Of a DNA stretch of 62,883 bases, positions 20,940 to 47,558 are shown in pieces. This stretch comes from a virus. A model generated the notes under the pieces. That model was not told the DNA's origin, searched no databases, and worked only from the letters and a program-made list of their open reading frames with translations. Numbering within the stretch: the stretch's first letter is position 1; every line of letters starts with the position of its first letter. A program made the position numbers and the translations under genes. Location of the stretch: positions 1 to 62,883 of the IMG/VR virus record IMGVR_UViG_3300007640_000006; one strand, written 5' to 3'.

Positions 20940-20957
20940 AACCCTACAGGGGGTTAG
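20940..20957 (-). promoter_or_regulatory. Late-operon conserved motif, copy 7 in transcription order (CTAACCCCCTGTAGGGTT)
   Basis: Intergenic, sense orientation, about 64 nt upstream of the giant-gene ATG. Confidence 0.6.
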
Positions 20958-20973
20958 CCCTTGGCAATAAGGC

Positions 20974-21471
20974 TCACTGCTGTCCGATCGTTGTGGAAGT
21001 CCTACCATTGCGAATGGTTGTAGATCTACTGCCATCACTTCCGAAGCAGTTCGTATAGTCACCATTGCTAAGACAATTGGTGACTACCCTCTTTCTACTT
21101 GGCTCGGGTTCCTGAATCCCATTTTCGGCGTTGATCCGCTTTCTCTCCAGGCGCTCCCTTATAATTTCGTCAGTGGTCAGCTGCCTGCTACTGTCTTTCA
21201 CAACGGTAACCTTTGTTCCAGCACCACCTCCAGATTGCGCGCTATTGCCGCGCATGATTTCCGCTGCTCGTAGATTTCTCTCAACCACCGACGAACTACT
21301 TTCTGGCTCTACTGTTCGCTGCACCTCTCCCAGGTACTGGGACTCACCACCGCCAGGTGGGCATGGCACCTGAGAAAAAGCGATCGCACCATCAGGTCCG
21401 ACACATTTGAATATCTGAGCGTTCGCCACCGATGCAAACATAACCGCCAAGATAAAAATGTAGATTTTCAC
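20974..21471 (-). CDS. Secreted DUF4124-like protein (165 aa)
   Basis: GTG 21471 with a GGAGG RBS 8 nt upstream. Signal peptide KIYIFILAVMFASVANA, then QIFKCVGPDGAIAFSQVPCP (DUF4124-like). Visibly AT-richer than its neighbours. Confidence 0.65.
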   Translation of the reverse strand: MKIYIFILAVMFASVANAQIFKCVGPDGAIAFSQVPCPPGGGESQYLGEVQRTVEPESSSSVVERNLRAAEIMRGNSAQSGGGAGTKVTVVKDSSRQLTTDEIIRERLERKRINAENGIQEPEPSRKRVVTNCLSNGDYTNCFGSDGSRSTTIRNGRTSTTIGQQ

Positions 21472-21554
21472 GATGCCACCTCCATGCAGTAGCGCAACGC
21501 TACCACCAGCGTGGTCGCCAGTCATCTGAACAGCAAACTACTCGACACACGGCG

Positions 21555-23525
21555 CTATTGACCAACCGATATCCCTTTACCACGCAGAAGCTCAATCACC
21601 CGCTCTGGACTGATACCCTCGTCTCTGGCGGTCTGCTCAACTTCTGCTCGCGATACCTCACGCCTGGCACCCTGAGTTTGCTGCGAAGCATTAACCGGCT
21701 GACCGGTAGTCACGTCGATAACCTGCTTGCCAACGATCGGTCGTCCCATTTCGTCACGATCAAGAATGACGTCCTGCGTGATATAGCGGTCCTTCGCCTG
21801 GGTCGCCAAGACGTTGTAAGCCTGGCGGGCGACATTACGCTGCTCTTCGCTGATGTTCGTGTCAGAGATCTGCGCGCGCAGTTGCTCGAGGCGCTGGCGA
21901 TCCTGCATGCCCAGGTCACCCTCGGCAATCTGCTGCTGCAGGCGCTGCTGGTTGAGCTGTTCGGTGCCCATTCGCTGGGTCGTGGCGGCACGCTCCACGG
22001 CCGAGTTGGCGGCGCCCTGCTGGGTCTGCTGCCGCTGCCCTTCCGTCTGAGCCTGTCGCGCATCGAGGCGAGCATTCTGCAGGTCGGCCAGGGTTGGCGA
22101 GCGGGAACTGTCGCGCACTACGGTAACCCGACCGCCACCTTCGCCGATTTCGCCACGTCGACTGGCCTGGATCATCTGCGCACGCTCTTGGTTGGCGCGC
22201 TCGAAGCGATCGATGGCCATCTGTGCGTCACCGGGAGCACCTACGGAAAGGCCACCACCAACGCCATCGCCAACACGGTTCATACCGCCAGCAGGCATCG
22301 TCCTGGCACCAGCTGCTGCCGCGTTGTCGTTCGTGAACTCAGGGGTGCCATCGGCACCGGTACGCATGGCGATGCCGTTGCCTGCCTGGGTGTAGCCGTT
22401 TCCGGCTGGCGATACAAACTCTGGTGCATCAGCGCTTGGCGCCGATGCTTCAGGCATCATGGCAGCAGACTCTCGCGCCATAGCCTGGATACGCTCAGGC
22501 GTCATCCCGGTGGTTGCAGTTGGTGCTGGCGAAGCGGCAGGCGCTGCGCCTGCGCCGTCACGCGGCTGCACGCCGAGGGCTTCACGACCAGCAGCACGCA
22601 GACCTTCGGTGGCGCCGCTGATACGATCCAAACCTTGCTGCACGCCGCCGACCGCCTCGTCGCGATATCGCGCTGCACCACCAGGTAGCGTCGACGGGTC
22701 GCCACCAACCGCATATGCAGCTACATTGCGCAGCGCATCCCGGCCAGCAGCGATCGGAACCTGAGCTGCGCCGGCCACGGCCTGACCGATGCCGGCCGGA
22801 ACATCCAGCAGGCCCCGAACTCCCGGCATACCGAGACGCGGCGCGTCCTGTTCAGTAGTCGTCGTGGTGGTGCTTCGCGGCATGCCCAGCCCCGGCTGCT
22901 GAGTGGCAGCAGACTGCTGGCCAGGGCGCGGCATCCCGAAGCCGCCGGCGCGCGGCTCAGCCTGCGCCGGAGTCGCCTGAGCGTTGTTACCCGGTACGCC
23001 GAGGCGTGGCGCATTCTGCTGCGCAAGCGTCGTGGCACCAGGTCTCGGCAGGCCAAGGCCTGGGGTATTGGTGATATCGAACGAGGTCTGGCGCGGATTG
23101 CGCTCATCGTCAACCAACCCACCATCCACGAAGAACTGGCGCGGGCCGTCGGCTTGCTGCCCTTTCGCAGCAGCCATCACCGCCTTGGTGAGCCCGAAGC
23201 CCTTCTGCTGGTGAGTGGCGTTCTTCAGTTGGTCGAGCACCACAGCGCCAAGCGCATGCACGTCCTGGGGCGGCATTTCGTACTCGCCATTACTGACGGC
23301 CACCGGCACCTGCTTGCCAGGCATACCGAGCCGCGGCTGTTCCCTATCCGGCGCACTCTGGCTATTACGCCCAGGCATTCCCAGCCCGAGCTGAGCCGTG
23401 GTGTCGGCCGGCAGGATGTAAGTTCCTTCCGGAACGTCTTTCTTGATCGAATCGGACGTGCCAGTGCCAGGCCCTTCGATCAATCCGCCATTGGCGGCAT
23501 GCTTGCGCTTGGGAAGCCCGTACAT
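21555..23525 (-). CDS. Virion internal/ejection-type protein (656 aa) with seven (P)RLGMPG-like repeats
   Basis: GGGAG RBS. N-terminal GPGTGTSDSIKKDVPEGTYILPADTT. Repeats are LGLGMPG, PRLGMPG, GLGLPRPG, PRLGVPG, GFGMPRPG, PGLGMPR and PRLGMPG. Q-rich coiled coil near the C-terminus. Confidence 0.7.
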   Translation of the reverse strand: MYGLPKRKHAANGGLIEGPGTGTSDSIKKDVPEGTYILPADTTAQLGLGMPGRNSQSAPDREQPRLGMPGKQVPVAVSNGEYEMPPQDVHALGAVVLDQLKNATHQQKGFGLTKAVMAAAKGQQADGPRQFFVDGGLVDDERNPRQTSFDITNTPGLGLPRPGATTLAQQNAPRLGVPGNNAQATPAQAEPRAGGFGMPRPGQQSAATQQPGLGMPRSTTTTTTEQDAPRLGMPGVRGLLDVPAGIGQAVAGAAQVPIAAGRDALRNVAAYAVGGDPSTLPGGAARYRDEAVGGVQQGLDRISGATEGLRAAGREALGVQPRDGAGAAPAASPAPTATTGMTPERIQAMARESAAMMPEASAPSADAPEFVSPAGNGYTQAGNGIAMRTGADGTPEFTNDNAAAAGARTMPAGGMNRVGDGVGGGLSVGAPGDAQMAIDRFERANQERAQMIQASRRGEIGEGGGRVTVVRDSSRSPTLADLQNARLDARQAQTEGQRQQTQQGAANSAVERAATTQRMGTEQLNQQRLQQQIAEGDLGMQDRQRLEQLRAQISDTNISEEQRNVARQAYNVLATQAKDRYITQDVILDRDEMGRPIVGKQVIDVTTGQPVNASQQTQGARREVSRAEVEQTARDEGISPERVIELLRGKGISVGQ

Positions 23526-23579
23526 TGCCTATCTCCCATGAAATTACGGAAATCTTTGCACCACCCTAGCGGCACCCCA

Positions 23580-23597
23580 AACCCTATAGGGGGTCAG
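23580..23597 (-). promoter_or_regulatory. Late-operon conserved motif, copy 6 (CTGACCCCCTATAGGGTT)
   Basis: Overlaps the TGA of the upstream gene, 54 nt upstream of the 656-aa gene ATG. Confidence 0.6.
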
Positions 23598-24130
23598 ATG
23601 ATTTCCATCGCCGACCTGAATGCTGTCCAAAAACCAGCCGGCGGCGGCACAACACCACCCGCGCCAGCAACAAGAAGCGCGCCCATCACCAGATCAGCGC
23701 CAGGCAGTTGCGCAGCAATGAAAGACGCTGAATCCGGCCCTTGCTCAATCGCAGCAGAGGGAGCCCAGTGCACACCCTGCACTAGTGGGGAGGGGATGAA
23801 ATCTGGCTCGTAATCAGCCGTGAAAGTAACCATCAACGGCAGTTCGCCCGACGCGACGTAGACGGTACCGCTCGACTGATCAGCCCCTGTCTCTGTCACG
23901 CCCTCGACAACAACCAACCCGTCGAAGCTAGCCGAGGCAATAACCCCTGGATACAGACGCGCCAACGCTGGAAACGCATCGCAGCGCGAAGGGTCAAACA
24001 CTGACCATCCCCCAGAAGTCTGGCTTTCCCAGTTCCACCAGCTGGCGTAGTCACGGTTAACCGTCTCAGAACTGGCCGATATCTCAGACAGGTTTATCGG
24101 AGAGAAGACCTGAACATACCCAGTTGCCAT
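23594..24130 (-). CDS. Hypothetical tail-module protein (178 aa)
   Basis: ATG 24130 overlaps the upstream TAA by 1 nt. No motif. Confidence 0.6.
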   Translation of the reverse strand: MATGYVQVFSPINLSEISASSETVNRDYASWWNWESQTSGGWSVFDPSRCDAFPALARLYPGVIASASFDGLVVVEGVTETGADQSSGTVYVASGELPLMVTFTADYEPDFIPSPLVQGVHWAPSAAIEQGPDSASFIAAQLPGADLVMGALLVAGAGGVVPPPAGFWTAFRSAMEII

Positions 24131-24642
24131 TATGTGAAATCCTCTGCGCGAACCAGCCTGCATTCCCCGTTGGCGTAGTACACCAATCCGTTTGGCATGT
24201 TCTTAAACGAGAGGTCTTGCGGCTGCATGGCCTCATCAAACTGAAGCGCCCGGTACTGGCGCACCACCCCTTCAGCCGACACAAGAAAATACGTCCGCAC
24301 AACGACGCCAGTGCTCGACTCTTCACCGTAGAAGACCATGTTGTCGCCCGTGCTACCCAAATTGCCAAAGTCGTAGTACTCCGAAAGCATGGCCATGGTG
24401 AACCGGTGAATCTCCACCGCGGCAGCCGGCGGCGTGTCCTTGTCCGCGCTCGGCACGCATCGCATGACCCTCAGATCATTACCATCCCAACTGCTGACCA
24501 GCACCACATCGCCCACCAAAACACCAACGGTGTCGGACTCTGCAGCTACGCGGCGCAGCACTTCAGCGCCGCCAGGTGTGTAGGTGTACAAGTAGCAGTA
24601 CCCAGTGTTGAAGTCTTTTGCCGCCCGATAGAAAACAGCCAC
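24130..24642 (-). CDS. Hypothetical tail-module protein (170 aa)
   Basis: Track ORF, 9 nt after the upstream stop. Confidence 0.6.
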   Translation of the reverse strand: MAVFYRAAKDFNTGYCYLYTYTPGGAEVLRRVAAESDTVGVLVGDVVLVSSWDGNDLRVMRCVPSADKDTPPAAAVEIHRFTMAMLSEYYDFGNLGSTGDNMVFYGEESSTGVVVRTYFLVSAEGVVRQYRALQFDEAMQPQDLSFKNMPNGLVYYANGECRLVRAEDFT

Positions 24643-31519: not shown

Positions 31520-31579
31520 GCAGCAGACTCAGGTCGGTTTCGATGACCAAAGTCTGCTTTCAAGGTTTAGTCCGGAGCG

Positions 31580-31597
31580 AACCCTACAGGGGGTCAG
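31580..31597 (-). promoter_or_regulatory. Late-operon conserved motif, copy 5 (CTGACCCCCTGTAGGGTT)
   Basis: Intergenic, 60 nt upstream of the ATG at 31519, immediately downstream (minus sense) of the hairpin copy at 31601-31623. Confidence 0.6.
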
Positions 31598-31600
31598 GAG

Positions 31601-31623
31601 GCGCACCCTCACTTCTGTGAGGG
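31601..31623. repeat. 23-nt direct repeat, copy 1 (gcgcaccctcacttctgtgaggg)
   Basis: Identical to 31784-31806. Only a 7-bp stem can form here. Confidence 0.9.
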
Positions 31624-36733: not shown

Positions 36734-37284
36734 TGGACGCTCCAGCACTTGGCGTGGCGCTCAAGCTGGCGGGCCCACACGCCCCAGCAGCGCGTGTTGG
36801 GCTTGCCGTTCACCAGGGTCGAGCAGTCGTATTTGGCGGCATAGCGCCATTTCAGCAGCGCGTCGCATGCCTTCGGGTACTCGCCAGCCAGCAGATGGCG
36901 GCGCATCGAGGATGATCGCCAGTTGCCGATGCCGTACTGGCCGGTGAAGTCGAGGTAGAGGTCGTATTCCTCCTGAAACAGCTTCACGCCAGGCAGCGAG
37001 GCCTGGAATCGGTTCTCTTCTTCGCTGTGCAGCGCCCTGGCTAGCTGCTGGGCGCGCTCGCGAGTGATGGGAGGATCTGCGAGAGTGACGCGCGTACCGT
37101 CTTCGTAGCGGGTCGAGCCGTGGCCGATGGTTGGCAAGTCGCCCTTGGTCGGGATGTGCGGAGCAAGCAGCTCGACGCCATCCTTCTGCACCACCGGGCC
37201 TTCGCCCTCGCTCTTGATCCAGGTGCCGAAGCCGGCCAGGCTGAGCGTCAGCGCCGTGACGGCAATCCGGTTGCGGATGCTCAT
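36730..37284 (-). CDS. SAR endolysin (T4-lysozyme-like muramidase, GH24-like)
   Basis: ATG 37284 overlaps the holin stop. Weakly hydrophobic N-terminus IAVTALTLSLAGFGTWI, then SEGEG...D...TIGHGST (E-D-T style catalytic pattern). Confidence 0.85.
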   Translation of the reverse strand: MSIRNRIAVTALTLSLAGFGTWIKSEGEGPVVQKDGVELLAPHIPTKGDLPTIGHGSTRYEDGTRVTLADPPITRERAQQLARALHSEEENRFQASLPGVKLFQEEYDLYLDFTGQYGIGNWRSSSMRRHLLAGEYPKACDALLKWRYAAKYDCSTLVNGKPNTRCWGVWARQLERHAKCWSVQ

Positions 37285-37547
37285 TGCTGCCTGCCTTCGA
37301 GGCCGCAGCGCTCGCGAAGCGCCTCGATGCGCGCCAGGCTCTCGGCCTGCTCCCGCTTGTCGCGTCGGTGCTGGAAGTAGAAATTGCAGGCCAGGCCGAG
37401 CAGCGCGATGACAACGCCAGAAAGCCCGATCCAGTTGATCTGAGCCAGCCAACCGAAAGCCCCTGCAATTGCGCCGCCGAGCATGCTCTTGTTCGTGATC
37501 GAAACGGCTACCGTGTCCACGGTGCTTTCATTGATTTGAAGTGCCAT
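37281..37547 (-). CDS. Holin, two-TMD (pinholin-like, paired with the SAR endolysin)
   Basis: 88 aa. TMDs GGAIAGAFGWLAQI and WIGLSGVVIALLGLACNFYF, with a charged C-terminus RRDKREQAE. Confidence 0.75.
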   Translation of the reverse strand: MALQINESTVDTVAVSITNKSMLGGAIAGAFGWLAQINWIGLSGVVIALLGLACNFYFQHRRDKREQAESLARIEALRERCGLEGRQQ

Positions 37548-37610
37548 GCTCGCTCCCGTGCTGGCTGGTCTGCTTTGACGGGATGCTATGAAGCGGAACG
37601 AACAGTGGCG

Positions 37611-37628
37611 AACCCTACAGGGGGTCAG
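37611..37628 (-). promoter_or_regulatory. Late-operon conserved motif, copy 4 (CTGACCCCCTGTAGGGTT)
   Basis: Overlaps the TGA of the upstream gene, 63 nt upstream of the holin ATG. Confidence 0.6.
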
Positions 37629-38281
37629 ACCCAGGCTTTGTTGTGCTGCTCAACGTCCTGGCGGGTGATGCGGCGCAGATCGCTGTCGGGGCGATCGCCG
37701 AAATAGGCGGTGAATGCGGCCAGGGCTGCATCGGCGCGGCCGAGGTCCAGCGTCTCGCTATCCGGAACACTGAAGGCGCGATGCAGTGCCCAGTTCACCA
37801 GATGCCGGTGATGGGCCTGGTTGATCTCTGGCTTCGACGACTTGTCGGCGGTGAGGCCGCGGATAGGCAGGCGGTACCCTTCCAGCTTGAGCGTGCCACC
37901 CAGGCGCGGCGTCGGTACCAGGCGGATGCTGGTGTCGCCCTGGATAGCGAAGCGCGGAACGTCGGTGCGGTCGCGCCAGCCTGGCATGTTGTCATCCAGC
38001 CACTCGCGCGAAACCAGCTTGACCTCGCACCGCTCGGTAGAACCTGCCTCAAGCAGGCCCAGGTGATCGATCTCGTACAGCACCTGGCTTAGCGGATAAA
38101 CCGTCTCACCTGCAGCGATATCGATCTCGAAGCTCGCATTATGCAGCAGGCGCCCGCGAATGCAGGCCTCCTGCTCTGCCTCAATGAGCCAACGCGCAAC
38201 GTCAGGCTGCTCGAACAGGTACGGTTCAACCTTGTCCTGTGCGGTAGTCCTGAAATCCTTGGTCAGCTCGTCGAGAGTCAT
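37625..38281 (-). CDS. Hypothetical head-module protein (218 aa), possible head-tail adaptor
   Basis: The call rests on position alone: it is the last gene of the head block, before the lysis cassette. Confidence 0.45.
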   Translation of the reverse strand: MTLDELTKDFRTTAQDKVEPYLFEQPDVARWLIEAEQEACIRGRLLHNASFEIDIAAGETVYPLSQVLYEIDHLGLLEAGSTERCEVKLVSREWLDDNMPGWRDRTDVPRFAIQGDTSIRLVPTPRLGGTLKLEGYRLPIRGLTADKSSKPEINQAHHRHLVNWALHRAFSVPDSETLDLGRADAALAAFTAYFGDRPDSDLRRITRQDVEQHNKAWV

Positions 38282-38284
38282 GGA

Positions 38285-39160
38285 TCACACCACCCCGAAC
38301 TGGTCGATCATGCCGGTGACCGCCTGGCGCAGTTCGGCGACAGACTTGCGCTTGTTGAGGTTCTGCTGGTAGTTGGTCATGGCGTACTCGGCCAGCGAGT
38401 CCTTGGTCATGATGTTGATCTGCTGCTTCAGGTCGAGAATGCGATTCTCCTTCTCGCGGTTCTCGTCCTCGAGCTTCTTGGCAGCAGCCAACTGGCGAGT
38501 GGTGTCGTCGTCTTCATCCTTGTCTTCGACCTTATCCGACTTCGCAGGCGCTTCGGCTAAGGCCTTGGCGCTGCCTTCTTCGAACATGTCGGGGTGACGC
38601 AGGAACTTGCGGGCGATATCGGCCGGCATGGCGCGCTCCTGGCCCTGAGTGAAGCTCAGGCCGGTGCCATACAGGTGATCGGTGTAGGTTTCCTTGCGGC
38701 CGATGTAGACCACCACGATCTTGCCAGGGCCAGCCGGTGCGCTCGGCGCAGCCTGACCTGCTGGAACCTTGGCCAGTGCAGCAGCAACGGCAGCGGCAGC
38801 CGCTTCGTCAGCGTCCGGCAGAACCTTCAGCGCATGCACGACGGCACGGAACAGGTAGTCCTTCGACTTCTGCTCGGGCGGCAATTCATCGTAGGGGCGG
38901 CAGCACGGGTGAGTCTTCTTCTCGGCGTCCTTCACTTCGCCGTACACCCAGCCGTCGGCGACCTTCTGAGCCAGCCAGCTTTCGTGCGATTGCTCGGGAG
39001 TGGCATCAGGGTTGGCCAGGTGCATTTCGACACCAGCGATGGCGCTCTTCTGCTGCCATTCCGGCGCGTCATCCCAGGTTGGCTGGGAATCATCGCCCAG
39101 CGACAGACAGAACGCCGCGTTGATGGCGTGCGCGACCTTCGCAATGACCAGTACTTTCAT
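38285..39160 (-). CDS. RyR-domain protein (291 aa) in the head module
   Basis: SHESWLAQKVADGWVYGEVKDAEKKTHPCCRPYDELPPEQKSKDYLFRAVVHAL fits the RyR-domain consensus (HExW..K..GW.YG...K.HP...PY.ELP...K). Acidic coiled-coil C-terminus. Confidence 0.7.
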   Translation of the reverse strand: MKVLVIAKVAHAINAAFCLSLGDDSQPTWDDAPEWQQKSAIAGVEMHLANPDATPEQSHESWLAQKVADGWVYGEVKDAEKKTHPCCRPYDELPPEQKSKDYLFRAVVHALKVLPDADEAAAAAVAAALAKVPAGQAAPSAPAGPGKIVVVYIGRKETYTDHLYGTGLSFTQGQERAMPADIARKFLRHPDMFEEGSAKALAEAPAKSDKVEDKDEDDDTTRQLAAAKKLEDENREKENRILDLKQQINIMTKDSLAEYAMTNYQQNLNKRKSVAELRQAVTGMIDQFGVV

Positions 39161-39175
39161 GTTCGTGTCCTACCT

Positions 39176-39202
39176 TGCGGAAAAAGAAAGGGGCCGAAGC
39201 CC
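39176..39202 (-). terminator. Rho-independent terminator
   Basis: Minus sense: GGGGC-ttcg-GCCCC followed by TTTCTTTTTCC. Confidence 0.75.
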
Positions 39203-39217
39203 CTCCCAAGCTGCGTA

Positions 39218-39700
39218 TCAGCGGGCGCCTTGCAGTTCGCCGCTCACCAGCACCTCGATCTTGCTGGCCTTGGCGTTGTCAGCGACAGCCGTGGTCAGGA
39301 TCAGGCGTGCCGGCTTGGCCAGCGTCTTCAGGGCTTTACCCGCATTGGCACGCAGGCGCGCAGCGGTTGCCAGGGCGAAGCCGGTACCGAAGTACGCGGC
39401 ATCCTGCGGCACAGTGGTGTCATCCACACCATCCTCGTAGGCAAAGCCCAGCGAGCCGGTGATAGTGGCGGTCATGCCGGTGCTGATCAGGATCGAAGCA
39501 TCGTCCAGGCGCATGCCTTCCGGCAGTGGGCCGAGGTCGACCACATCGGCAGCAGCGATCGCTGCAGTCGAATCAGCGTTGAGCGCGGCACCGTTGGAGC
39601 CGGTTTCCAGGGTGAACTTCAGGGTGGTGGTGTTGCCATAGGCACCAGCAGCACCGCCGAACTGGCGATTGCCGTAGGTCTTTAGGGTTACTTTGGCCAT
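39218..39700 (-). CDS. Capsid-associated structural protein (160 aa), possible decoration protein
   Basis: AAGGAG RBS, directly downstream of the capsid gene, followed by a strong terminator. The function is positional only. Confidence 0.5.
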   Translation of the reverse strand: MAKVTLKTYGNRQFGGAAGAYGNTTTLKFTLETGSNGAALNADSTAAIAAADVVDLGPLPEGMRLDDASILISTGMTATITGSLGFAYEDGVDDTTVPQDAAYFGTGFALATAARLRANAGKALKTLAKPARLILTTAVADNAKASKIEVLVSGELQGAR

Positions 39701-39734
39701 GATGGGCTCTCCTTCAATGGGGTTCAGTAAAGGC

Positions 39735-39754
39735 GGGCCGGTGTTACCCGGCCC
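39735..39754 (-). terminator. Stem-loop after the capsid gene (possible attenuator)
   Basis: GGGCCGG-gtaaca-CCGGCCC with only a weak U-tract (GCCTTTAC). Confidence 0.35.
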
Positions 39755-39760
39755 AACCCA

Positions 39761-41053
39761 TCACTTGCGAGCGCCGATGATCGGCACAGCGGTGTCGATC
39801 GCGGTGGCACCGTAGTCGGTGAACTCGGTACCGTTGCCGGTCTCGATCGCGAAGCGGATCTTGCTGACGCCACGAATGGCACCCAGCAGCAGTTCCACCT
39901 TGTCGCCGTGGTCCAATTCCTTCTCGCTCCAGAAGAACGGGATCTTGGACTTCTCGCTGGCAGCCATCGCCTCGGCCACGGCCTGGCCACCCAGCAGGAT
40001 GGCGCGGTCGATAGCGAAGTTGGTGCCGAAGCTCGAAGGCACGATGCAGGTGCTCTCGGTTTCGCTGTTGCTGGCCGCGCAGTAGCGGATGGTGTCGCCG
40101 GCGTAGAAGCGGATCGGCTTCGGCATCTTCACGATCAGCACGCCATTCCACAGACCGACCTCGCCCAGGAACAGCGGGTGGCCTTTGGCTTGCTGGGCAC
40201 GTGCCATCGCACTGGCCTGCAGTTGACGGAAGTTTGGATCAGCTGCGAACAGGTTGTACTGAGCAGCGGAAACCAGCATCACGCGCAGCGGCGATTCGTT
40301 GGCAGCAGCGTCACCTTCGAAGATCACCGGAGGCGGCGGCAGAGCCACCTGATCGAGATAGGTACGCACACCATCCACGGTGTCCATCTTGAACAGGTCG
40401 GTGGTCGCCAGGTCGACTTCACCAGCGTTCACGGTGAACGGCTTGATGCCGTTGCCACCATCGGCGATGAAGTGACGGTTCTTGGTCGGCGCTTTCACGC
40501 GGTTGACCATGATCTTGGCGAAGTCCGGATGCGCTTCGGTTGGCACAGCCCATTCGATGTTGTCCTGAAAACCGCGAGCACCAGCCATGTGCACCAGCAG
40601 GCTCTGGTCGACATAGGCGTCCATCTTCGCCTGTGCGACAGGGCGACCCAGGCGGCGGAAGTCGGCCGGACTGCGGATGGTGGTCATGGTGTCGCCGAGG
40701 TCGATCGGGAAGCGCGCCTGGTTCACGCGCAGCTTGTCCTCGGACAGTTTCATGCCCACACCGCGACCCTCGGCATACTCGCTACCCATGATCGGGTAAC
40801 CGCCTACCGGGTTCAGCAGGTGGAAGGTGACTTCATCACCGCGGCTCTTGCCCAGGTCCTGGCAACGAACAATCGGCATGTGCTGGGTGGTCTGCTTGCG
40901 CAGGGTAGCCTCGGCACCAGCGGTGCCTTTCGGCATCTTGCCGGTGAGGCGGTTCATGGTGGTATTGCGCTGGGTGTGGACGGCGAACAGGCCGACGGCC
41001 TGCTCAACCATCGCCTGCGGGTCGCCGTAGCGCATATGAGTCTTGTCGGTCAC
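39761..41053 (-). CDS. Major capsid protein (430 aa)
   Basis: GTG start with an AAGGAG RBS 7 nt upstream. The gene follows the scaffold gene. Size and composition fit HK97-fold capsid proteins of the N4/DUF4043-like type (from memory, unverified). Confidence 0.75.
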   Translation of the reverse strand: MTDKTHMRYGDPQAMVEQAVGLFAVHTQRNTTMNRLTGKMPKGTAGAEATLRKQTTQHMPIVRCQDLGKSRGDEVTFHLLNPVGGYPIMGSEYAEGRGVGMKLSEDKLRVNQARFPIDLGDTMTTIRSPADFRRLGRPVAQAKMDAYVDQSLLVHMAGARGFQDNIEWAVPTEAHPDFAKIMVNRVKAPTKNRHFIADGGNGIKPFTVNAGEVDLATTDLFKMDTVDGVRTYLDQVALPPPPVIFEGDAAANESPLRVMLVSAAQYNLFAADPNFRQLQASAMARAQQAKGHPLFLGEVGLWNGVLIVKMPKPIRFYAGDTIRYCAASNSETESTCIVPSSFGTNFAIDRAILLGGQAVAEAMAASEKSKIPFFWSEKELDHGDKVELLLGAIRGVSKIRFAIETGNGTEFTDYGATAIDTAVPIIGARK

Positions 41054-41085
41054 GGTGAATCTCCTTGATCACGGGACACGGAGCG

Positions 41086-42141
41086 TCAGACGCTCCGGTT
41101 CAGAAATGCCTCGATCTGGTCCGGGCTCTTGTCCATCAAGGCCTCAGCCATATCTACGGCGCCTAAGTTCGCCAGTGCTTCGCTGCCAGTGGCCGGGCCT
41201 GCTCGGCCGCCCGGAATATCCGAGAGGCTTACAGGTACCGCCGGCTTGGCCGCTTCCACGGCTTGCTTGGCTGCTGCCTTAACGTCCGTACTTGCGGGCG
41301 CCTCGGCTGCTGCCTGAGTTTTCCCAGTGGCTTCCTTGTACGTGTCGATGAACTCGATGATTTCCTCGGCAGTGCCCTTCTCCATCACCGAGCGGTATGC
41401 GCTACGGGCGAATCCGGGTTGCGACTCGATCCACGCATCCAACTCCGAGCTCTCGATAATCGAATCGAGGTCAGGGTGCTTGGCGTAGATCGCCTGCGCG
41501 TGAGCTTCCTGCTCGGTCATCTGCTGCTTCTGCTGCAGGGGGGCCACTTGCTGCTTCACCAGATCGGCCAGCAGTGCCGGGGCACTCTTGGCGATCAAGG
41601 CTTGCACGCCTTTGGCCAACGCTTCCGGGGAGAAATCCCCGAACAACTCTGGGTCAACGCCGGCATCCATAGCGGCCTCAGCGGCTGCCAGGTGTTTGTC
41701 GGCATCGGTCGGCGCCATCCCGGCGTCCACCCGTTGCTGTGCTTTTTCCCTGAGCGTTTCCAGTTCCTTCTGGGTATCCTGCAGCTTCTGCAGAGCTTCC
41801 TGCTCGCGAGCTTCCGCTGCTTGCTTTCCTTCTCGCGCATCCAACAGGCGCTGATACGGAATGGTGTGGACGTTGTCCTTCGCCATGATCACGGACTTGG
41901 CCGGATCTTCCGCCTCAACGCTTGCCGCGTTGTCATCGGTGTTCGATACGTCGTCAGTTGCCTGTGCGCCGTCAGTGGCTTGCGCGGCTTCTGCAGCAGC
42001 AGCGGCGGGCGTATCGCTGCCAGTTTCCGAGGTCTGTTCCCCGGTATCGCCCATATCCGCCAGCTCAAGAAGCTGGGCGGCCTGCTCTGCCGTCATCTCA
42101 CCGTTCGGTGCGTGTTGCTGGATAAACTCGTTCGGATTCAT
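41086..42141 (-). CDS. Scaffolding protein (351 aa)
   Basis: Lies between the portal and capsid genes. Acidic, Ala/Glu/Gln-rich, predicted coiled coil. Confidence 0.7.
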   Translation of the reverse strand: MNPNEFIQQHAPNGEMTAEQAAQLLELADMGDTGEQTSETGSDTPAAAAAEAAQATDGAQATDDVSNTDDNAASVEAEDPAKSVIMAKDNVHTIPYQRLLDAREGKQAAEAREQEALQKLQDTQKELETLREKAQQRVDAGMAPTDADKHLAAAEAAMDAGVDPELFGDFSPEALAKGVQALIAKSAPALLADLVKQQVAPLQQKQQMTEQEAHAQAIYAKHPDLDSIIESSELDAWIESQPGFARSAYRSVMEKGTAEEIIEFIDTYKEATGKTQAAAEAPASTDVKAAAKQAVEAAKPAVPVSLSDIPGGRAGPATGSEALANLGAVDMAEALMDKSPDQIEAFLNRSV

Positions 42142-42262
42142 GCCTGTCCCGCCACATATCGCCGTGGCCGCAATGGGTTCAGCAGTTACGAGGCGTCGCC
42201 GCCTCGCGCATCGCCAGGTCGCACCTGGCTTGCGAACGAGTGTCGCGAGGGGATCGGAAAAG

Positions 42263-42294
42263 AAAAAACCCTACAGGGGGTCAGATCTGTAGGG
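42263..42294 (-). terminator. Hairpin plus T6 after the portal gene, incorporating motif copy 3
   Basis: Minus sense: CCCTACAG-atctgacccc-CTGTAGGG (8-bp stem, 10-nt loop) followed by TTTTTTCTTTT. Confidence 0.55.
42267..42284 (-). promoter_or_regulatory. Late-operon conserved motif, copy 3 (CTGACCCCCTGTAGGGTT)
   Basis: Intergenic, 125 nt upstream of the scaffold ATG. Forms the 3' arm and loop of the hairpin above. Confidence 0.6.
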
Positions 42295-42302
42295 CTTTCA
42301 GG

Positions 42303-44603
42303 TCAGGCGAGGTTGTCGGTGGTGCTGACAGTCTCGATTCCCTGCATTCCGGTACCAGGCTCAGCAGGTACCGGCGGGAAGGCTGGACTGGTGTTCTCGC
42401 GCACTGGCGGCAAGCTATCAGGGCCACCTGGCTGCACATAAGGCGTCTTGATGTTCATCGCTGCAGTGGCGTCGGCCTGCGGGAAGTTTGGATCGTCGCC
42501 CTGCTGCTGTTCGTAGCCGGCGCCCTTCATGATCTCGTCGGCGACCGGGGCGATCATCGGCATCTGCGCGACCTGGGCAGCCGCTTGCATAGCCGAGTAA
42601 GCGGCCTGCACGCCAATCTGCACGGACTCGCGGCGGATCTTCTCGATCTCGGCGTCTGTCTTGCCCTCCTTCATCGCCAGTTCGCGCATCTTCAGTTCTA
42701 CGCCTGACTTGGCCAAGGCTTCGTCCACCGCCTGCTTGATGCGCTGCTCGACCTGCTCCGGCGATTCCTGCTCGCCAGCGGCGCGAATTGCTTCGACCAC
42801 ATCGCGCTTGAACGGCACATCCATGAGGCTGACCAAGAACGGCAGCACTGCGGCCTGGTACTGAGGCGGCAGGCTCTTGACGGCCTCGGAAAGCGCAGCC
42901 AGCTGCTGCGCGCGATAGCTGTTGGTGCTCGGCACATCCTCCAGAGCTACTTTCAGGCGAGTCCGCTGCAAGTCGTTCGACAGATAGGTGTAGCCGGCCG
43001 GGTCCTGCTCCGGCTTGTTGATCACCACGGTACGATCCTCTCGCACCGCATCGCCCTCGATGATGATCGTCTGCTGCTTCGCGCCGAGATCCTTGATGAT
43101 CATCGACAGGAGCATTTCGCCAACCAGCGTCCGGCCGGCGCGGAAGTTGTCCATCATCACACCCAGCGCCTGGTTGCTCTGCTCGATCTGCATCGCCTCC
43201 TGCCGGCCACTGGTGGCAGTACCTTCCTTGCCCATAAACCCAGTTGTCACCGCCGATACGCGCTGAATCGCGGAGCGGTTGTCCTGCAGCATCTGGAACT
43301 GCTGTTGATTCAGTTGGTAGTCACGATGCACCTGAAAACGAGCGCCAGGGTTGTTTCTGAAGTGATCGGCATTCAGCACGATATCCGCATCCACGCGCGC
43401 CACCTGCTGGCGAAACTGGGCATCGGTCATATCCACGGCGCCCTTGGTGCGCTCGGTGCGTACCGACGCCATACCCCAGCGCAGCTTGCTGATGCCGCTG
43501 TTCAGGCTGTCCTGCGGGTAGATCATGTCGCGCACGTAGCCGAATGGCACTCTGGTACCGTCCTCACGGAAGCCCCAGAACGGAGCATAGGGGTAATGCC
43601 GGTGGGTGTACGGGGTCGGTCCATCGTGCAAGCGGTGCGGGCCAAGCCAATAGCTACGACGCACGCGAGCCACTACGGCACGACTGTAGGTCGACATGCC
43701 GCTGGCAAGCGCCACCTGATGCGCCATGTTGCTCTCGTCGTACTCGACCACACGACCATCGGGCGCGGTGATGACGCCAACCTCAACCCAGCGCCGGTAC
43801 CAGACTTCGGCCAGGCAGATCTCCTTCGAGGTCGGGTTGTACCAGCGTTCCTCTTGCACGGTCCAAGCGCGCGCTTCTGCCCAGGCGTTGTGCAACCCAG
43901 TCGAATCGCCGCCGTCATTTGCAGCGTTTGGCGTGTCCATCCACCACTCGGCACCGTGCTTGCCGATCGCCAGGATCAGTTCCTTGTGCTCGGGGAACAC
44001 GCGAGCGATACGGTCAGGCAGCAGCCAGCGCTGACGACGCAACCAGCGCGCATCGCTCAAGTCCTTCTCGATCGCGGCAAAATCCCAGTGGATTTCGTTA
44101 CGGTGCACCACGCTGCAACGGTAGGGGTACTTGAAAGGGTCGCTCTCGCGCTTCACCTCAACCCATCCAAGGCCGACCGCAATCTGCGGCTGGAATGCAT
44201 CGCTGCAGGCGTCGTCGGCCTTCGCATGCCGCTCAGCCTGGTTGAGCTTGTAGTTCAGCGCATCGGCCACGTCCTGGCCGCCCACTTCGCCATCCGGCGT
44301 CACGCGCCAGTCAGTGCGGGTCGCACTCTCGTAGCCACGGATAGACAGCAGTGCCGGGCCGATCAGGTTCTCGACTGCTGGCGGAATACCCAGCGCACGC
44401 TGCCTGGCCAGCAGCTCGCCATCGAGTTGGTTGCCGTCCGCGTAGTCCATTTCCTTGTCGGCGGTGCCGCGCCACTTCGGCTGTTCCTCGATCTCATGCA
44501 TGATCTCGGTGTACTCGTCGAGCGTCAGCGCGAGCTCGTCTTTCGCCTCTTCGGCCTGCTCGGGGTGCTTGAGTGCGGTAGCGTCCATCTGGTGGTTCCT
44601 CAC
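42303..44603 (-). CDS. Portal protein
   Basis: 766 aa, directly downstream of TerL. GTG 44603 overlaps the TerL TGA. An alternative ATG at 44588 has a GAGGA RBS. Confidence 0.8.
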   Translation of the reverse strand: MRNHQMDATALKHPEQAEEAKDELALTLDEYTEIMHEIEEQPKWRGTADKEMDYADGNQLDGELLARQRALGIPPAVENLIGPALLSIRGYESATRTDWRVTPDGEVGGQDVADALNYKLNQAERHAKADDACSDAFQPQIAVGLGWVEVKRESDPFKYPYRCSVVHRNEIHWDFAAIEKDLSDARWLRRQRWLLPDRIARVFPEHKELILAIGKHGAEWWMDTPNAANDGGDSTGLHNAWAEARAWTVQEERWYNPTSKEICLAEVWYRRWVEVGVITAPDGRVVEYDESNMAHQVALASGMSTYSRAVVARVRRSYWLGPHRLHDGPTPYTHRHYPYAPFWGFREDGTRVPFGYVRDMIYPQDSLNSGISKLRWGMASVRTERTKGAVDMTDAQFRQQVARVDADIVLNADHFRNNPGARFQVHRDYQLNQQQFQMLQDNRSAIQRVSAVTTGFMGKEGTATSGRQEAMQIEQSNQALGVMMDNFRAGRTLVGEMLLSMIIKDLGAKQQTIIIEGDAVREDRTVVINKPEQDPAGYTYLSNDLQRTRLKVALEDVPSTNSYRAQQLAALSEAVKSLPPQYQAAVLPFLVSLMDVPFKRDVVEAIRAAGEQESPEQVEQRIKQAVDEALAKSGVELKMRELAMKEGKTDAEIEKIRRESVQIGVQAAYSAMQAAAQVAQMPMIAPVADEIMKGAGYEQQQGDDPNFPQADATAAMNIKTPYVQPGGPDSLPPVRENTSPAFPPVPAEPGTGMQGIETVSTTDNLA

Positions 44604-46216
44604 GTGCGCCAGTCAGGTGCTGGGGCTTCTGTGTACGACTGCCGGCCCTGGTGTCCGAGCATGTCCAGTTCTTTGGCCTGCGCCCACTGACGAAAGGCGT
44701 CGGCGCCCTCGCTGCAGCCGTTGGCCTTGTTCGGTGCGTTGTCGAGAAAGCGGTTTTCGGAGCGGCTGAACTTCTTGCGGTAGTTGTCCAGGCGGTTGAT
44801 GCCGTCGGCACAGGCCACTTCGTCGATGAAGCAGCCCTTCATGTGCTTGCGGGTCTGCTGGATGCCGGTAATCAGTTCAGTGATGCGCGGCACGATGACG
44901 AACGTGTGCCCGGGCAGCAGATCCTCGAGCATTTCCAACACGCTGCGGTTGTAGTCGCCCAGGCGCTTGTGCGCGGCGTCATGCGGTAGGTAGTGGGTGC
45001 CGTACAGATAGCCGCGGTCCTTCAGTTCCTGCGCGTAGTGGCGCAGATCCTTGCCGTGCTCTTCGTAGTAGTCGACGAATCGATCCTCGCCGCGCAGTTC
45101 CTGCTGGAACCACACAGCGCAGCCGTCGCTGTTGCCGATATCCCAGAAGGTGTTCACCGGCACGTCGAGCACAGGCACGCGAGTGATCCCGCCGCGCTTG
45201 CGCATGGCCTGCATGTCCTCGGCGTAGTAGTTGCCCTCGGTGCTGATCTGGAAGGCTTCATCGGGCGTGCCAGGGTATTCCTGCCACATCCGCTCTTCCT
45301 TGCCGGCGAAGTCGGCCTGCTTGGTGGCCACGTACCAGGCGCGCTGGTCCGGGTCGATCTTGCAGTCCATCAGTGCTTCGAGCTTGTCGAAGTAAGCGTG
45401 CTGGCCGCGATCGACCGGCACCGTGACGCTCGGCAGCCGATAGTTCGGCTCCTGCCACCAGGCGTAGAAGTGGAAGCGGTAATCCTTGGGCGTGAGGGGC
45501 TTCTTGTCCCGGTAGTTCTTCTGGGCGATCTGCACCATGTTGAAGAACTCGCCTTCGCGCCCTTCCGCCGTGCTCTCGATCACCAACACGCCATTGGTTG
45601 GCACGGCCGGTATCGAACCGGTGACCACTTCCTGCGCCTTGTCCGGGTACTTGGCGCAGATTTTCCCGAACTCGGAGACGTGCAGGCGGTGGATGGTGCC
45701 AGAGCGCATCGAGGTCGCCACACGCACAGAACTGTTGTTGTGCGCGAAAAGCAGCTCGACCGCGCTATCCCTGGCCAGCGGAAAGCGCTCACGGATCTCG
45801 TCCGGAAGGTTCTCGTAGGCGAATTTCACCTTGTCGCGGAATATCGTCTCGGCCGCCTCGCGATCCTGAGCGATGATGCCGCAGCGCTGGTTGGCGTTGA
45901 ACAGCGCGTGATCCAGCCACAGGATGGCGATCAGTGTCGTGAAGCCGAGTTGGCGTGCCTTCAGGATCAGGTTGCGATGCCACAGCCGCTTCAGGAACCG
46001 CTTCTGCGCCCGGTTCGGCTTGAACGGCATCACGAACGACTCGCCTTCCTCGACGATGTTGCCGAGCTCGTCGACTTTGTCGTCGCCCTTCACCATGATT
46101 TTGTACAGGCAGCCAGAGAACAGGCGCCATTCAGGGTCAGCCAGGCAGCGCGCCAATTCCTCTGCATTGGTCGGCAGAGGCTGCAGTGGCGTGTCGTGCG
46201 TCACTCGCATGGCCAT
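44600..46216 (-). CDS. terL: Terminase large subunit
   Basis: Walker A-like LILKARQLGFTT and Walker B-like IHRLHVSEF, with a C-terminal nuclease-sized half. GAGGA RBS. Confidence 0.9.
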   Translation of the reverse strand: MAMRVTHDTPLQPLPTNAEELARCLADPEWRLFSGCLYKIMVKGDDKVDELGNIVEEGESFVMPFKPNRAQKRFLKRLWHRNLILKARQLGFTTLIAILWLDHALFNANQRCGIIAQDREAAETIFRDKVKFAYENLPDEIRERFPLARDSAVELLFAHNNSSVRVATSMRSGTIHRLHVSEFGKICAKYPDKAQEVVTGSIPAVPTNGVLVIESTAEGREGEFFNMVQIAQKNYRDKKPLTPKDYRFHFYAWWQEPNYRLPSVTVPVDRGQHAYFDKLEALMDCKIDPDQRAWYVATKQADFAGKEERMWQEYPGTPDEAFQISTEGNYYAEDMQAMRKRGGITRVPVLDVPVNTFWDIGNSDGCAVWFQQELRGEDRFVDYYEEHGKDLRHYAQELKDRGYLYGTHYLPHDAAHKRLGDYNRSVLEMLEDLLPGHTFVIVPRITELITGIQQTRKHMKGCFIDEVACADGINRLDNYRKKFSRSENRFLDNAPNKANGCSEGADAFRQWAQAKELDMLGHQGRQSYTEAPAPDWRT

Positions 46217-46219
46217 AGG

Positions 46220-47068
46220 TCAGTCCTCGCCATGCTCAGGGTCGTGCGCCACTGTCTTGAACCCGTTCGAATTACCGCTGGCGATCGAGTGCAGGAGGCT
46301 GGCCAGCGGGTCGACGCGCTGCTGGTTGTCCTTCTCGTACAGGCCCAGGTGCTTGAACAGCTTCTCCATGGCCGCATCTTTCGAGTGCGTCATGATCTCG
46401 ATGCCGAACTTCGTCTGCTTCACGCCGGCATACAGCGACGCAGCACCAGGCGAAAGCTTGCGGGTGTCCTTCAGCACTACACGCGGGTAGCCGTGTCCAC
46501 CGCATTCCGGGCAACCAGGGAACGGATCACGGTTCGGATCGAAGCCAACGCCGCCGTCTTCTGGGAAATCCTCGGGTTCTTCGCCTTCGTCCACCCACAG
46601 CTTGTACGCATAGTCACGTTCGATCTGGGTGCGCTGGCGCATGTGCCCTTCGCCGTAGCAGTGACGGCAGCACACAACCACCAGCTCGGTCAGCTCGCGA
46701 GCATCGGCCGTGACCTGATTCCACGCCTCGCGCAGCACACGATCAGCAGTGATCTCGGTGCGCTGTTGCTGTTTCAGCCGCGCTTCAGCGATAGCCGCCT
46801 GGATATTAGGTTTCGTTAGGTTCTCGCATCCAACGACTGCAGCCGTCTTCTCGCTGTATCCAGCACGGATCGCTGCCTGCTTGGCGTTCAGGTCGACCAT
46901 GTACTCTTCGACGAATCGAACCTGCAGGGCTGTAAGCGCTACCTCAGCGTTATGCACCTTCACCGTATTGCGAGCACGCGCAGTCGAGCCGGTCGCCTTA
47001 TTCTTGGCTACCGGCTTCTTCACTGGCTTCTTGGGTGCGGGCTTGGCGCCCTTCTCTTTCGTGGTCAT
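46220..47068 (-). CDS. terS: Terminase small subunit (Terminase_2-like)
   Basis: FVEEYMVDLNAKQAAIRAGYSEKTAAVVGCENLTKPNIQAAI fits the HTH of small terminases. Cys pairs CCRHCYG...CPECGGHG lie in the C-terminal half. Confidence 0.85.
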   Translation of the reverse strand: MTTKEKGAKPAPKKPVKKPVAKNKATGSTARARNTVKVHNAEVALTALQVRFVEEYMVDLNAKQAAIRAGYSEKTAAVVGCENLTKPNIQAAIAEARLKQQQRTEITADRVLREAWNQVTADARELTELVVVCCRHCYGEGHMRQRTQIERDYAYKLWVDEGEEPEDFPEDGGVGFDPNRDPFPGCPECGGHGYPRVVLKDTRKLSPGAASLYAGVKQTKFGIEIMTHSKDAAMEKLFKHLGLYEKDNQQRVDPLASLLHSIASGNSNGFKTVAHDPEHGED

Positions 47069-47102
47069 GCCCGGAGTCTTTCCGGGTGATGGCAGGGTGT
47101 CG

Positions 47103-47120
47103 AACCCTACAGGGGGGCGC
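47103..47120 (-). promoter_or_regulatory. Late-operon conserved motif, copy 2 (GCGCCCCCCTGTAGGGTT)
   Basis: Lies between the terminator at 47154-47180 and the terS ATG (34 nt upstream). Confidence 0.55.
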
Positions 47121-47153
47121 AGGCTATGGCTGGCAAGGGTTTGGGCAGAGACA

Positions 47154-47180
47154 AGAAAGCCCGCACTCGGCGGGCTTTCT
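47154..47180 (-). terminator. Intrinsic terminator between the early-right and late genes (potentially bidirectional)
   Basis: AGAAAGCCCGC-loop-GCGGGCTTTCT 11-bp inverted repeat. Minus sense is followed by TGTCTCT and plus sense by CTGCATC. Confidence 0.6.
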
Positions 47181-47193
47181 CTGCATCGGTGGG

Positions 47194-47472
47194 TCAGGCG
47201 CTCGATCGCGCCCAGTGCAGCACCTGGTCATTCGTGCGGTTGAACACCATACCGGCACTGGCGATACGCATGTCGCTGCGCAATGCGGGGCTTTGCTTGC
47301 TCTCCAGGCTGCGAGGCTGCATCACCTCGGCCAGGTTGCGCTTGGCCTCGGCAGCATAGTGCTGGTCAGCGTAGGCCTTGAAGGCCAGGTGGTCGGCGGG
47401 TACCGGCGCAGCGAACACCAGGCCGCTGGACAGATACAGGATCGCGATAACGCACAGCAGGACTTTCTTCAT
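47194..47472 (-). CDS. Small secreted protein (92 aa)
   Basis: Internal ATG 47472. Signal peptide MKKVLLCVIAILYLSSGLVFA|AP. Flanked by motif copy 1 upstream and a terminator downstream. Confidence 0.6.
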   Translation of the reverse strand: MKKVLLCVIAILYLSSGLVFAAPVPADHLAFKAYADQHYAAEAKRNLAEVMQPRSLESKQSPALRSDMRIASAGMVFNRTNDQVLHWARSSA

Positions 47473-47540
47473 CTTCGGACGCCTCGACAGGTTGAGGTAG
47501 TTGGCAGTCCGAGTGTTTCGCTGGCATCCCTGCCAGTTCA

Positions 47541-47558
47541 AACCTTACAGGGGGTCGT
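47541..47558 (-). promoter_or_regulatory. Late-operon conserved motif, copy 1, most divergent (ACGACCCCCTGTAAGGTT)
   Basis: Overlaps the TAA of the upstream gene, 68 nt upstream of the ATG at 47472. Confidence 0.5.

Follow-up and report, generated by a model that had tools for sequence, protein, structure and literature searches.

We analysed a 62,883-nucleotide stretch of viral DNA (IMG/VR virus record IMGVR_UViG_3300007640_000006, positions 1 to 62,883; hereafter 'the window'), in which seven copies of a short repeat, here called the box, are spread over the late region. The window has a GC content of 61%. Its phage is distantly related to Pseudomonas phage 8P and the F116 group (Hollowayvirus: F116, LKA5, H66 and phiC725A); at the nucleotide level, similarity shows up only near the capsid genes. 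Phages of the F116 type, which are temperate and carry out generalised transduction, are common in Pseudomonas aeruginosa; the F116-group relatives are podoviruses of temperate lifestyle that have a giant virion protein and a portal of the P22 type. Pfam identified an 878-amino-acid (aa) open reading frame (ORF) as a helicase/methylase, and found integrase, ERF, RdgC, Cro-like, Arc-like and AlpA domains among 38 further early ORFs.

Seven copies of the box lie between the late genes

A search with CTGACCCCCTGTAGGGTT, allowing up to three mismatches, returned seven matches in the window, all on the minus strand, with starts at positions 20940, 23580, 31580, 37611, 42267, 47103 and 47541. These are the same seven same-orientation copies that had been claimed in an earlier reading of the sequence (the original prediction). 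In shuffled sequence 0.01 matches were expected, and seven were reached in none of 100 shuffles. When both strands of the window were scanned with a weight matrix made from many related sites, the seven boxes scored 25–29 bits and the runner-up 7.3 bits; because of this gap, we regard the boxes as a discrete set without weak additional copies. The same scan agrees with the claim that the rightward operons hold no copy, and the partial match that had been remarked on, CCTGTAGGG at about position 6230 on the plus strand, is real and lies inside an ORF.

The consensus of the box is A-CCCCCTGTAGGG-TT. As had been proposed, every copy falls in a gap between late ORFs or on the last codons of the ORF before it, and three of them overlap a stop codon: the TAA inside the variant box CTGTAAGG is the stop codon of a 142-aa ORF (47545–47973), and the TGA of a 'CTGA' preceding the box is that of the adaptor gene (37625–38281) in one case and of a 189-aa ORF (23594–24163) in another. 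The next start codon lies 34–125 nt past the end of the box, a range that reproduces the previous estimate of about 35–125 nt. The genes that follow the boxes encode the secreted protein, terS, a scaffold-like protein, the holin, a 398-aa head-closure (Hc3-like) protein, a 656-aa protein and a giant 3041-aa protein.

Promoter-like elements follow the box at a fixed distance

To describe the flanking sequence, we numbered positions from the first C of the CCCCC in the box (position 0). From all loci we kept 112 sites whose flanks were less than 60% identical, 92 of them in a GC-rich context. In the logo of these 92 sites the box is nearly invariant (positions −1 to 13), upstream of position −4 there is no information, and a second conserved element appears around positions 36–42. 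Without any shift, 65/92 sites have an A at +37 and 57/92 a T at +41. When a shift of 1 nt was allowed, a hexamer with an offset of 36 or 37 was found in 80/92 sites, reading n-A(86/92)-c-A(71/92)-c-T(91/92). The combination of an A with a T four bases on occurs at position 37 in 60% of sites and at position 38 in 33%, and at other non-box positions in fewer than 12%. The gap between the box and this −10-like hexamer (nAnAnT) is 22–23 bp.

All seven copies in the window conform to this layout. From the box at 47541 down to that at 20940, the hexamers are AACACT, AAGACT, GACACT, TAGCAT, CAGACT, AAGATT and GAGACT, each spanning 36–41 or 37–42 nt from the first C of the box. The original prediction had stated that no −10 follows at a fixed distance, which is incorrect.

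A weak −35 element is visible at positions 13–18, T(91/92)-T/C-G(59/92)-n-C-C; it overlaps the end of the box and is separated from the hexamer (36–41) by a spacer of 17 bp. In AT-rich hosts (Acinetobacter, Psychrobacter and Alkanindiges) the hexamer stands at the same distance and is nearer to TATAAT (AATAAT, GATACT, GATTAT and GAAACT), and the −35 region is nearer to TTGAC. Placed from the −10, the predicted transcription start is about 48 nt past the first C of the box. The centre of the near-palindrome CCCTGTAGGG within the box is 41.5 bp upstream of this predicted +1, for which both the −10 and ATG codons at +48 to +50 were used. A sigma70-type layout would thus put the box at about −49 to −35, with CCCTGTAGGG centred at about −41.5. 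The ATG codons form a peak at positions 48–50 (14/92 sites, 13 of them resembling gene starts, mostly of terS), as expected if the mRNAs are leaderless and start where the −10 predicts.

A scan for consensus sigma70 promoters over both strands of 36–55.9 kb found none, where 4.0 were expected from shuffles, and the same scan of 20–40 kb found three against 5.0 expected, none of them at a box. The promoter-free stretch (36000–55900) takes in the surroundings of the cro-like gene.

The seven predicted late promoters

Predicted late promoter 1 (47512–47558, on the minus strand like the six others), located by the motif search and the matrix scan, precedes the small secreted-protein gene (ATG at about 47472). 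Its box, A-CCCCCTGTAAGG-TT, occupies 47555–47541 and its −10-like AACACT 47517–47512, for a predicted start at about 47505. Promoter 2 (47075–47120) precedes terS (PHROG 51), with its box at 47117–47103, a −35-like TCGACA at 47103–47098, the −10-like AAGACT at 47080–47075 and a predicted start at 47068. Promoter 3 (42239–42284) lies in the portal–scaffold gap, where the box (42281–42267) is followed by a T-rich spacer and by GACACT at 42244–42239; the predicted start, at about 42231, falls at a conserved CAAG. The layout of promoter 3 is also found in the portal–scaffold gap of F116, LKA5 and 8P and of many IMG/VR contigs.

Promoter 4 (37583–37628), before the holin and lysis genes, has its box at 37625–37611, TAGCAT at 37588–37583 and a predicted start at about 37576. 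Promoter 5 (31551–31597), before the 398-aa head-closure gene, has its box at 31594–31580, CAGACT at 31556–31551 and a predicted start at about 31544. Promoter 6 (23551–23597) stands before the 656-aa gene, a homologue of F116 p58 (PHROG 11341); its box is the fully palindromic variant CCCCCTATAGGG (23594–23580), with AAGATT at 23556–23551 and a predicted start at about 23544. Promoter 7 (20912–20957), with its box at 20954–20940, GAGACT at 20917–20912 and a predicted start at about 20905, precedes the gene of the 3041-aa polyvalent protein (11762–20887, minus strand). Pfam assigns LPD38, LPD5, LPD1, LPD3 and ART-PolyVal (ADP-ribosyltransferase) domains to this protein, and neither a polymerase nor a methylase domain; in F116 the annotation at the homologous position is a methyltransferase. 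The phiC725A paper reports a match to the C-terminal domain of N4 gp50. We considered the giant protein as an N4-like virion polymerase and dropped this candidate, as Pfam shows polyvalent-protein domains only. Elsewhere in the late region, a 291-aa protein of the head module (38285–39160, minus strand) has a RyR domain (PF02026, E = 1e-11).

A predicted leaderless terS mRNA and hairpins near the promoters

The predicted start of promoter 2 is the A of the terS ATG (47068), so the terS mRNA would be leaderless. The hexamer ends 6 nt ahead of this ATG, and a ribosome-binding site would have no space. The −10 itself sits in the loop of an inverted repeat, CCCGG-N7-CCGGG (47086–47070, minus strand), and this repeat recurs with compensatory variants in the terS copies of other phages (e.g. 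ccgggaacactcccgg and cgcgggaacactcgcgcg).

Terminator-like hairpins occur in the late region at 39207–39186, 31811–31784 and 20910–20893. The last of these, AACCCGCTACGGCGGGTT with its T-run (20885–20910, minus strand), starts 2 nt past the −10 of promoter 7. Since the predicted start of promoter 7 lies within the 5′ arm of the hairpin, read-through from upstream should stop here and the promoter's own transcripts should escape. This arrangement is kept in relatives (including those at loci L047, L052, L059 and L108) with compensatory changes in the stem, and a similar hairpin layout recurs in the Acinetobacter prophage loci L120, L134 and L136–L141. Across the sites, such hairpins with T-runs start inside, or 2–4 nt past, the −10 of some box promoters, and at 10/112 sites a terminator-like hairpin ends 16–58 nt ahead of the box. 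We infer that the hairpins overlapping the −10 are terminators of read-through that spare the promoter's own RNA.

The 365-nt gap at 31520–31885 holds two copies of the hairpin (GCG)CACCCTCACAGAAGTGAGGGTGCGC, one (31811–31784) with a T-run and the other just before the box of promoter 5. The two copies flank a 40-aa ORF on the opposite strand (31654–31776, plus strand), and two relatives (L064 and L073) retain the hairpin beside the box.

The box is conserved at equivalent gaps in related phages

At syntenic gaps of homologous phages, a comparison proposed along with the original prediction, the motif is present in F116, LKA5 and 8P. Always on the sense strand, it precedes terS, the scaffold gene, p58 and the holin gene in F116 (core CCCC(C)TGTA(A/G)GG); the scaffold gene, a CsrA-like gene, 8P_022 and the holin gene in 8P; and terS, the scaffold gene and LKA5_058 in LKA5, where one copy is annotated only as an ab initio 'terminator'. 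All three phages have a box before the homologue of the 656-aa gene of the window. The box also occurs in prophages of Acinetobacter, Variovorax and Psychrobacter, and searching IMG/VR for an exact 15-mer gave more than 114 stretches, often several per contig of 60–66 kb. The window has seven boxes and its relatives have three to five. Between relatives, the flanks are unrelated and the box is identical. We conclude that the repeat is real, conserved and functional.

Some boxes stand before accessory genes. In an Acinetobacter prophage with 40% GC, boxes lie in sense orientation downstream of the gene for the winged-helix protein described below, in the gaps behind the portal gene and ahead of a putative terS, a Tad2-like gene and the scaffold gene. 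The Tad2-like anti-defence gene (L120, 16570–17178) thus has a box of its own, as does the insert with the small secreted-protein gene in the window (47194–47558). Because they carry their own box and some are followed by terminators, these boxed accessory genes look like late-expressed morons.

Outside this group of phages, an AT-rich giant-virus metagenome-assembled genome in IMG/VR, GVMAG-S-1101171-112 (three contigs: L004, L049 and L074), contains at least five copies of the core CCCCCTGTAGGG, including several exact 15-mers, ACCCCCTGTAGGGTT. Their flanks are unrelated, and the copies are too many for chance in one bin; they could come from misbinned phage or represent an unrelated motif.

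A winged-helix protein accompanies the box

The candidate late activator is a 210-aa protein encoded at 48025–48657 (minus strand) by the penultimate gene of the early-right operon, which follows homologues of NinB and NinG. The protein belongs to PHROG 8117, a family of function not known. It is 52% identical to F116 p37, the gene of which lies directly before the first F116 box, and 8P_038 is a further homologue. Others, annotated as 'hypothetical', occur in prophages of Pseudomonas/Ectopseudomonas, Variovorax, Ottowia, Acidovorax, Acinetobacter and Psychrobacter; all 41 phage records with the protein label it either 'hypothetical' or 'AbiEi antitoxin'. In the examined prophages of Variovorax and Acinetobacter, the gene follows YbcO or RusA and precedes the terminase genes. 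It directly precedes the first box in F116, in LKA5 and in the Acinetobacter and Variovorax prophages.

An AlphaFold model of the 210-aa protein, with a mean predicted local distance difference test score of 79, comprises a confidently modelled winged helix (residues 7–64), a three-stranded sheet, a long helix (97–151) and a disordered basic tail. The winged helix superposes on the DNA-binding domains of DtxR, IdeR, IclR and MarR with a root-mean-square deviation of 1.3–1.7 Å over about 61 residues. Sequence searches of Pfam, NCBIfam and the PDB gave no match, and structure searches of PDB and viral fold libraries gave none to the whole protein and only generic winged-helix matches, PDB profiles included; assignment to a known family was therefore dropped.

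We counted matches to the pattern CCC[CT]T.TA[AG]GG within ±10 kb of the gene in 39 GTDB loci with a homologue, by position and strand. Downstream of the gene there were 55 matches on the same strand and two on the opposite strand; upstream there were two and one, respectively. We also compared the 42 early or non-structural ORFs of the window with six genomes: LKA5, 8P, Pseudoalteromonas phage Y7, Acidovorax phage AP1, and an Acinetobacter and a Variovorax prophage. The 210-aa protein is the only one with homologues in 6/6 genomes, and every other ORF is common to at most two of them.

The Y7 homologue is 42% identical to the 210-aa protein and has R44 of the recognition helix replaced by N. 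Y7 has no canonical box; in the same gaps (ahead of terS, the scaffold gene and the last gene, and behind the giant gene) it has ACC-n-A-(C/T)-TGTAAGGTTAG, with an A/T hexamer at positions 36–41 in 3/4 copies checked. The terS copy reads TAAAAC, without the final T. In AP1, which has a different tail module, CACCCTGTAGGG stands ahead of a structural gene, an ATG lying at the predicted start, and ACCCGTGTAGGG stands ahead of the holin gene.

In Ectopseudomonas mendocina, Ottowia thiooxydans and Pseudothauera, the winged-helix gene lies away from terminase genes (L123, 5223–10435; L128/L161, 4592–10444; L148, 4560–12579). It adjoins there a homologue of the 656-aa gene and genes of large proteins in which Pfam found no match. 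Some 5 kb upstream, and on the strand of the winged-helix gene, there is a box-like sequence (ACCCCCTGTGGGG, ACCCCGTCTAGGG or CCCCCCTGTAGGG), and in L123 and the Ottowia locus it stands directly before the run of ORFs that leads to the winged-helix gene. The Ottowia locus is flanked by AlpA, integrase and MobA genes. These terminase-less loci could be remnants or satellite-like elements.

A probable activator site and its alternatives

We favour, with a probability of roughly 0.6, the reading that the seven repeats are the activator boxes of seven sigma70-type late promoters, with the 210-aa winged-helix protein as the prime candidate for their activator. We hold the promoters with higher confidence than the identity of the binding factor. 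A late-activator binding site was among the alternatives of the original prediction; the bipartite promoter layout, the synteny and the co-occurrence with the winged-helix protein favour it over the others. From these observations we infer the transcription starts, the binding of protein to DNA and the activation.

Several points weigh against this reading. All positions given relative to +1 depend on our assignment of the −10. Part of the co-occurrence of protein and box could be due to their common transfer with the F116-type structural module: where the protein is encoded but F116-type structural genes are missing, a canonical box is mostly missing nearby as well. About a dozen loci have the protein and no canonical box in the vicinity. 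The covariation between protein and box comes from only one or two divergent phages. A 10-bp palindrome is short for a winged-helix dimer, and the conserved C-run and TT outside it are asymmetric. Finally, the F116 genome paper (Byrne and Kropinski 2005) may hold an earlier description of the element.

The alternative that survives best, to which we give a small chance, accepts the late promoters as described and has the box read by another phage protein or by a conserved host factor, the winged-helix protein being, for example, a repressor, an antitoxin-like regulator or a replication factor. Promoter architecture by itself does not name the binding factor. The loci with protein and without box fit such a role, as do the 'AbiEi antitoxin' label in some records and a faint Pfam match to AbiEi_4, and the window also encodes Arc-like and AlpA-like DNA-binding proteins. 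However, no other early ORF is common to the box-bearing genomes, and the winged-helix gene stands directly ahead of the first box in phages and prophages alike. A host factor would in addition need to be conserved from Acinetobacter to Variovorax, and yet in Y7 the box changes along with the phage protein.

The winged-helix gene occupies the position of a Q gene, after NinG, RusA or YbcO and before terS. The box might then be the loading site of a Q-like factor: the winged-helix protein would bind beside the promoter and join RNA polymerase at that point, and the modified polymerase would resist late terminators, so that the system would work by antitermination and not by recruitment. The terminator-like hairpins scattered in the late region, and the hairpin and T-run within about 10 nt of the −10 behind some boxes, are compatible with this idea. 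However, Q systems have one late promoter, whereas here there are four to seven boxes per genome, each with weak core elements, and the logo of the 92 sites shows no conserved pause-inducing element past the predicted start. RNA initiated at promoters with −10-adjacent hairpins would be without the 5′ arm. Pfam found no protein of the Q family, nor of the Mor/C or Ogr (Ogr_Delta) families, among the early ORFs of the window. We regard antitermination as unlikely.

That the motif works at the RNA level, by forming a small hairpin (ACCC...GGGU), by being processed or by binding a CsrA-like protein, is in our view very improbable. The canonical 20-mer can form a 5-bp hairpin of −5.7 kcal/mol; F116 and 8P encode CsrA-like late-region proteins, with an 8P box just ahead of that gene; and the portal–scaffold copy is followed by a T-run and, in LKA5, is called a terminator. 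However, the fold energies are no better than those of shuffles (z −1.4 to +0.6), natural variants (TGTAAGG and CTCTAAGG) break the stem without compensation, and what the logo conserves is sequence and not pairing. When the boxes were tested as intrinsic terminators, a T-run was present only at the portal–scaffold copy, and the hairpin was again no better than in shuffles. No Rfam family matches the motif. The window has seven boxes and no homologue of the F116 and 8P CsrA-like proteins, and the motif is without the GGA core of CsrA sites, reading AGGG or AAGG with no GGA in a stable loop. An RNA signal would also leave the −10-like hexamer at a fixed distance unexplained. The hairpin alternative of the original prediction therefore has little to recommend it.

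We see hardly any room for a promoter of a single-subunit phage RNA polymerase, as had first been suggested, or of a phage sigma factor. There is a superficial likeness, in that CTATAGGG and CTGTAGGG resemble the initiation region of T7-type promoters, and CCCCCTGTA also resembles the sigma32 −10 element CCCCATNTA. However, Pfam detected no RNA polymerase or sigma factor domain in the 3041-aa protein, the 878-aa ORF or the 38 early ORFs, in keeping with the earlier remark that no RNA polymerase gene could be recognised. A T7-type promoter is expected to be one block of about 23 bp, from −17 to +6, whereas the conserved block here is only 14–16 bp with nothing conserved upstream, and the separate −10-like element 22–23 bp downstream, accompanied by a weak −35 at fixed spacing, is not expected for that type. 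We reject a single sigma factor that bridges both conserved elements, because at 22–23 bp apart they are too far from each other. For a sigma32 promoter, a conserved −35 should lie upstream of the box, and the logo has none; a sigma32-type −10 (CCCCATNT) was considered and dropped because nothing is conserved upstream and the −10-like element is downstream. An RfaH/ops-like element, considered for the shared GTAG, was likewise dropped because the promoter-like elements lie downstream of the box and not upstream.

Just as improbable is a main role as a module-boundary recombination sequence for the exchange of late cassettes: the box does stand at junctions of differing gene content (in the window at the secreted-protein gene, in the Acinetobacter prophages at Tad2-like and other inserts) and is identical between unrelated flanks, but such a site needs no strict sense orientation (55 against two matches), no −10 at a fixed distance and no start codon at the predicted +1, all of which it would leave unexplained, and exchange at shared promoters is an expected by-product.

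Discussion

We propose that each copy of the box is the upstream half of a late promoter read by host sigma70 RNA polymerase. The core elements would be too weak to fire unaided. The box would be bound, and polymerase recruited, by a phage protein produced late from the early-right operon, for which the 210-aa winged-helix protein is the most probable candidate; from a class II position at about −41.5 the activator could touch sigma region 4 or the alpha subunit. Seven units would thereby be switched on together: the secreted protein; terS, terL and portal; scaffold and capsid; lysis; head closure and tail; the 656-aa gene; and the giant polyvalent gene. Terminators before or overlapping some boxes would halt read-through, making late expression depend on the activator.

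The predicted logic matches that of activator-dependent late promoters in other temperate phages. Phage Mu uses Mor and C at several promoters with a recognisable −10 and a poor −35, where a partly symmetric activator site abuts or overlaps the −35 and is centred near −43.5; the activator is a small DNA-binding protein of the phage, expressed with the preceding temporal class. The window resembles this arrangement in its several predicted late promoters, weak −35 and putative activator site at the −35, with the 210-aa protein as candidate activator, and differs from it in having no Mor/C domain and an unrelated box, and in that the candidate combines a winged helix and a long helix instead of the Mor-type helix-turn-helix. 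In P2 and 186 (Ogr and B) and P4 (Delta), at least four late operons with identical boxes and weak cores are all switched by one small phage protein; the Ogr box, TGT-N12-ACA, lies near −55, and Ogr, which has a zinc finger, contacts the alpha subunit. A repeated putative activator box and weak core elements at each late operon of a temperate phage recur here, whereas the box is CCCCCTGTAGGG, predicted to lie at about −41.5, and no early ORF has an Ogr_Delta domain.

The predicted geometry matches that of class II activation. At class II CRP/FNR promoters and at PRM of lambda, where cI acts, a site at about −41.5 or −42 overlaps the −35 and the activator contacts sigma region 4. The box would be centred at −41.5, CRP-family proteins are also of winged-helix type, and Vfr was among the weak fold matches of the 210-aa protein. 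CRP/FNR sites, however, are 22-bp palindromes bound by dimers, whereas the symmetric part of the box is 10 bp with asymmetric flanks, and the 210-aa protein has no cNMP or sensor domain. With Q of lambda and P22 (gp23), the candidate shares the position of its gene at the end of a nin-like region before terS, in a temperate phage with a P22-type portal and terminase. The action of Q is confined to one late promoter with its terminator; here a genome has four to seven boxes, each with its own core promoter, and there is no Q-family domain. We conclude that, by analogy, the F116-type system would work like the Mu C/Mor and P2/P4 activators, and that it belongs to none of their families.

A bolder extension, which we put forward tentatively and hold to be doubtful, is that the PHROG 8117 protein founds a new and widespread family of master activators of phage late genes. 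Its box of 12–14 bp would be a portable 'late-expression plug'. It would drive structural operons, terS mRNAs without a leader and promoters that contain their own read-through terminators, and accessory genes would have picked it up as well. By analogy with P2 and P4, box and activator may also occur in small terminase-less loci that are trans-activated by a helper phage or trans-activate one.

In the literature we searched, which did not include the F116 genome paper, the motif string appears in no phage context, how F116-like phages transcribe their late genes is not discussed, and the papers on them and on Hollowayvirus contain nothing on promoters. We thus found no description of the late-gene switch of this group, relatives of which are widespread as prophages in Acinetobacter, Variovorax and other proteobacteria. 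The model is testable, since it yields seven predicted starts, one defined box and one candidate protein. If it is correct, a family now labelled 'hypothetical' or 'AbiEi antitoxin' would gain a function, and the operon annotation of F116-like phages would improve. It would also provide a compact, orthogonal activator–promoter pair for Pseudomonas and Acinetobacter, and it would explain the late expression of accessory and anti-defence genes inserted in the late region.

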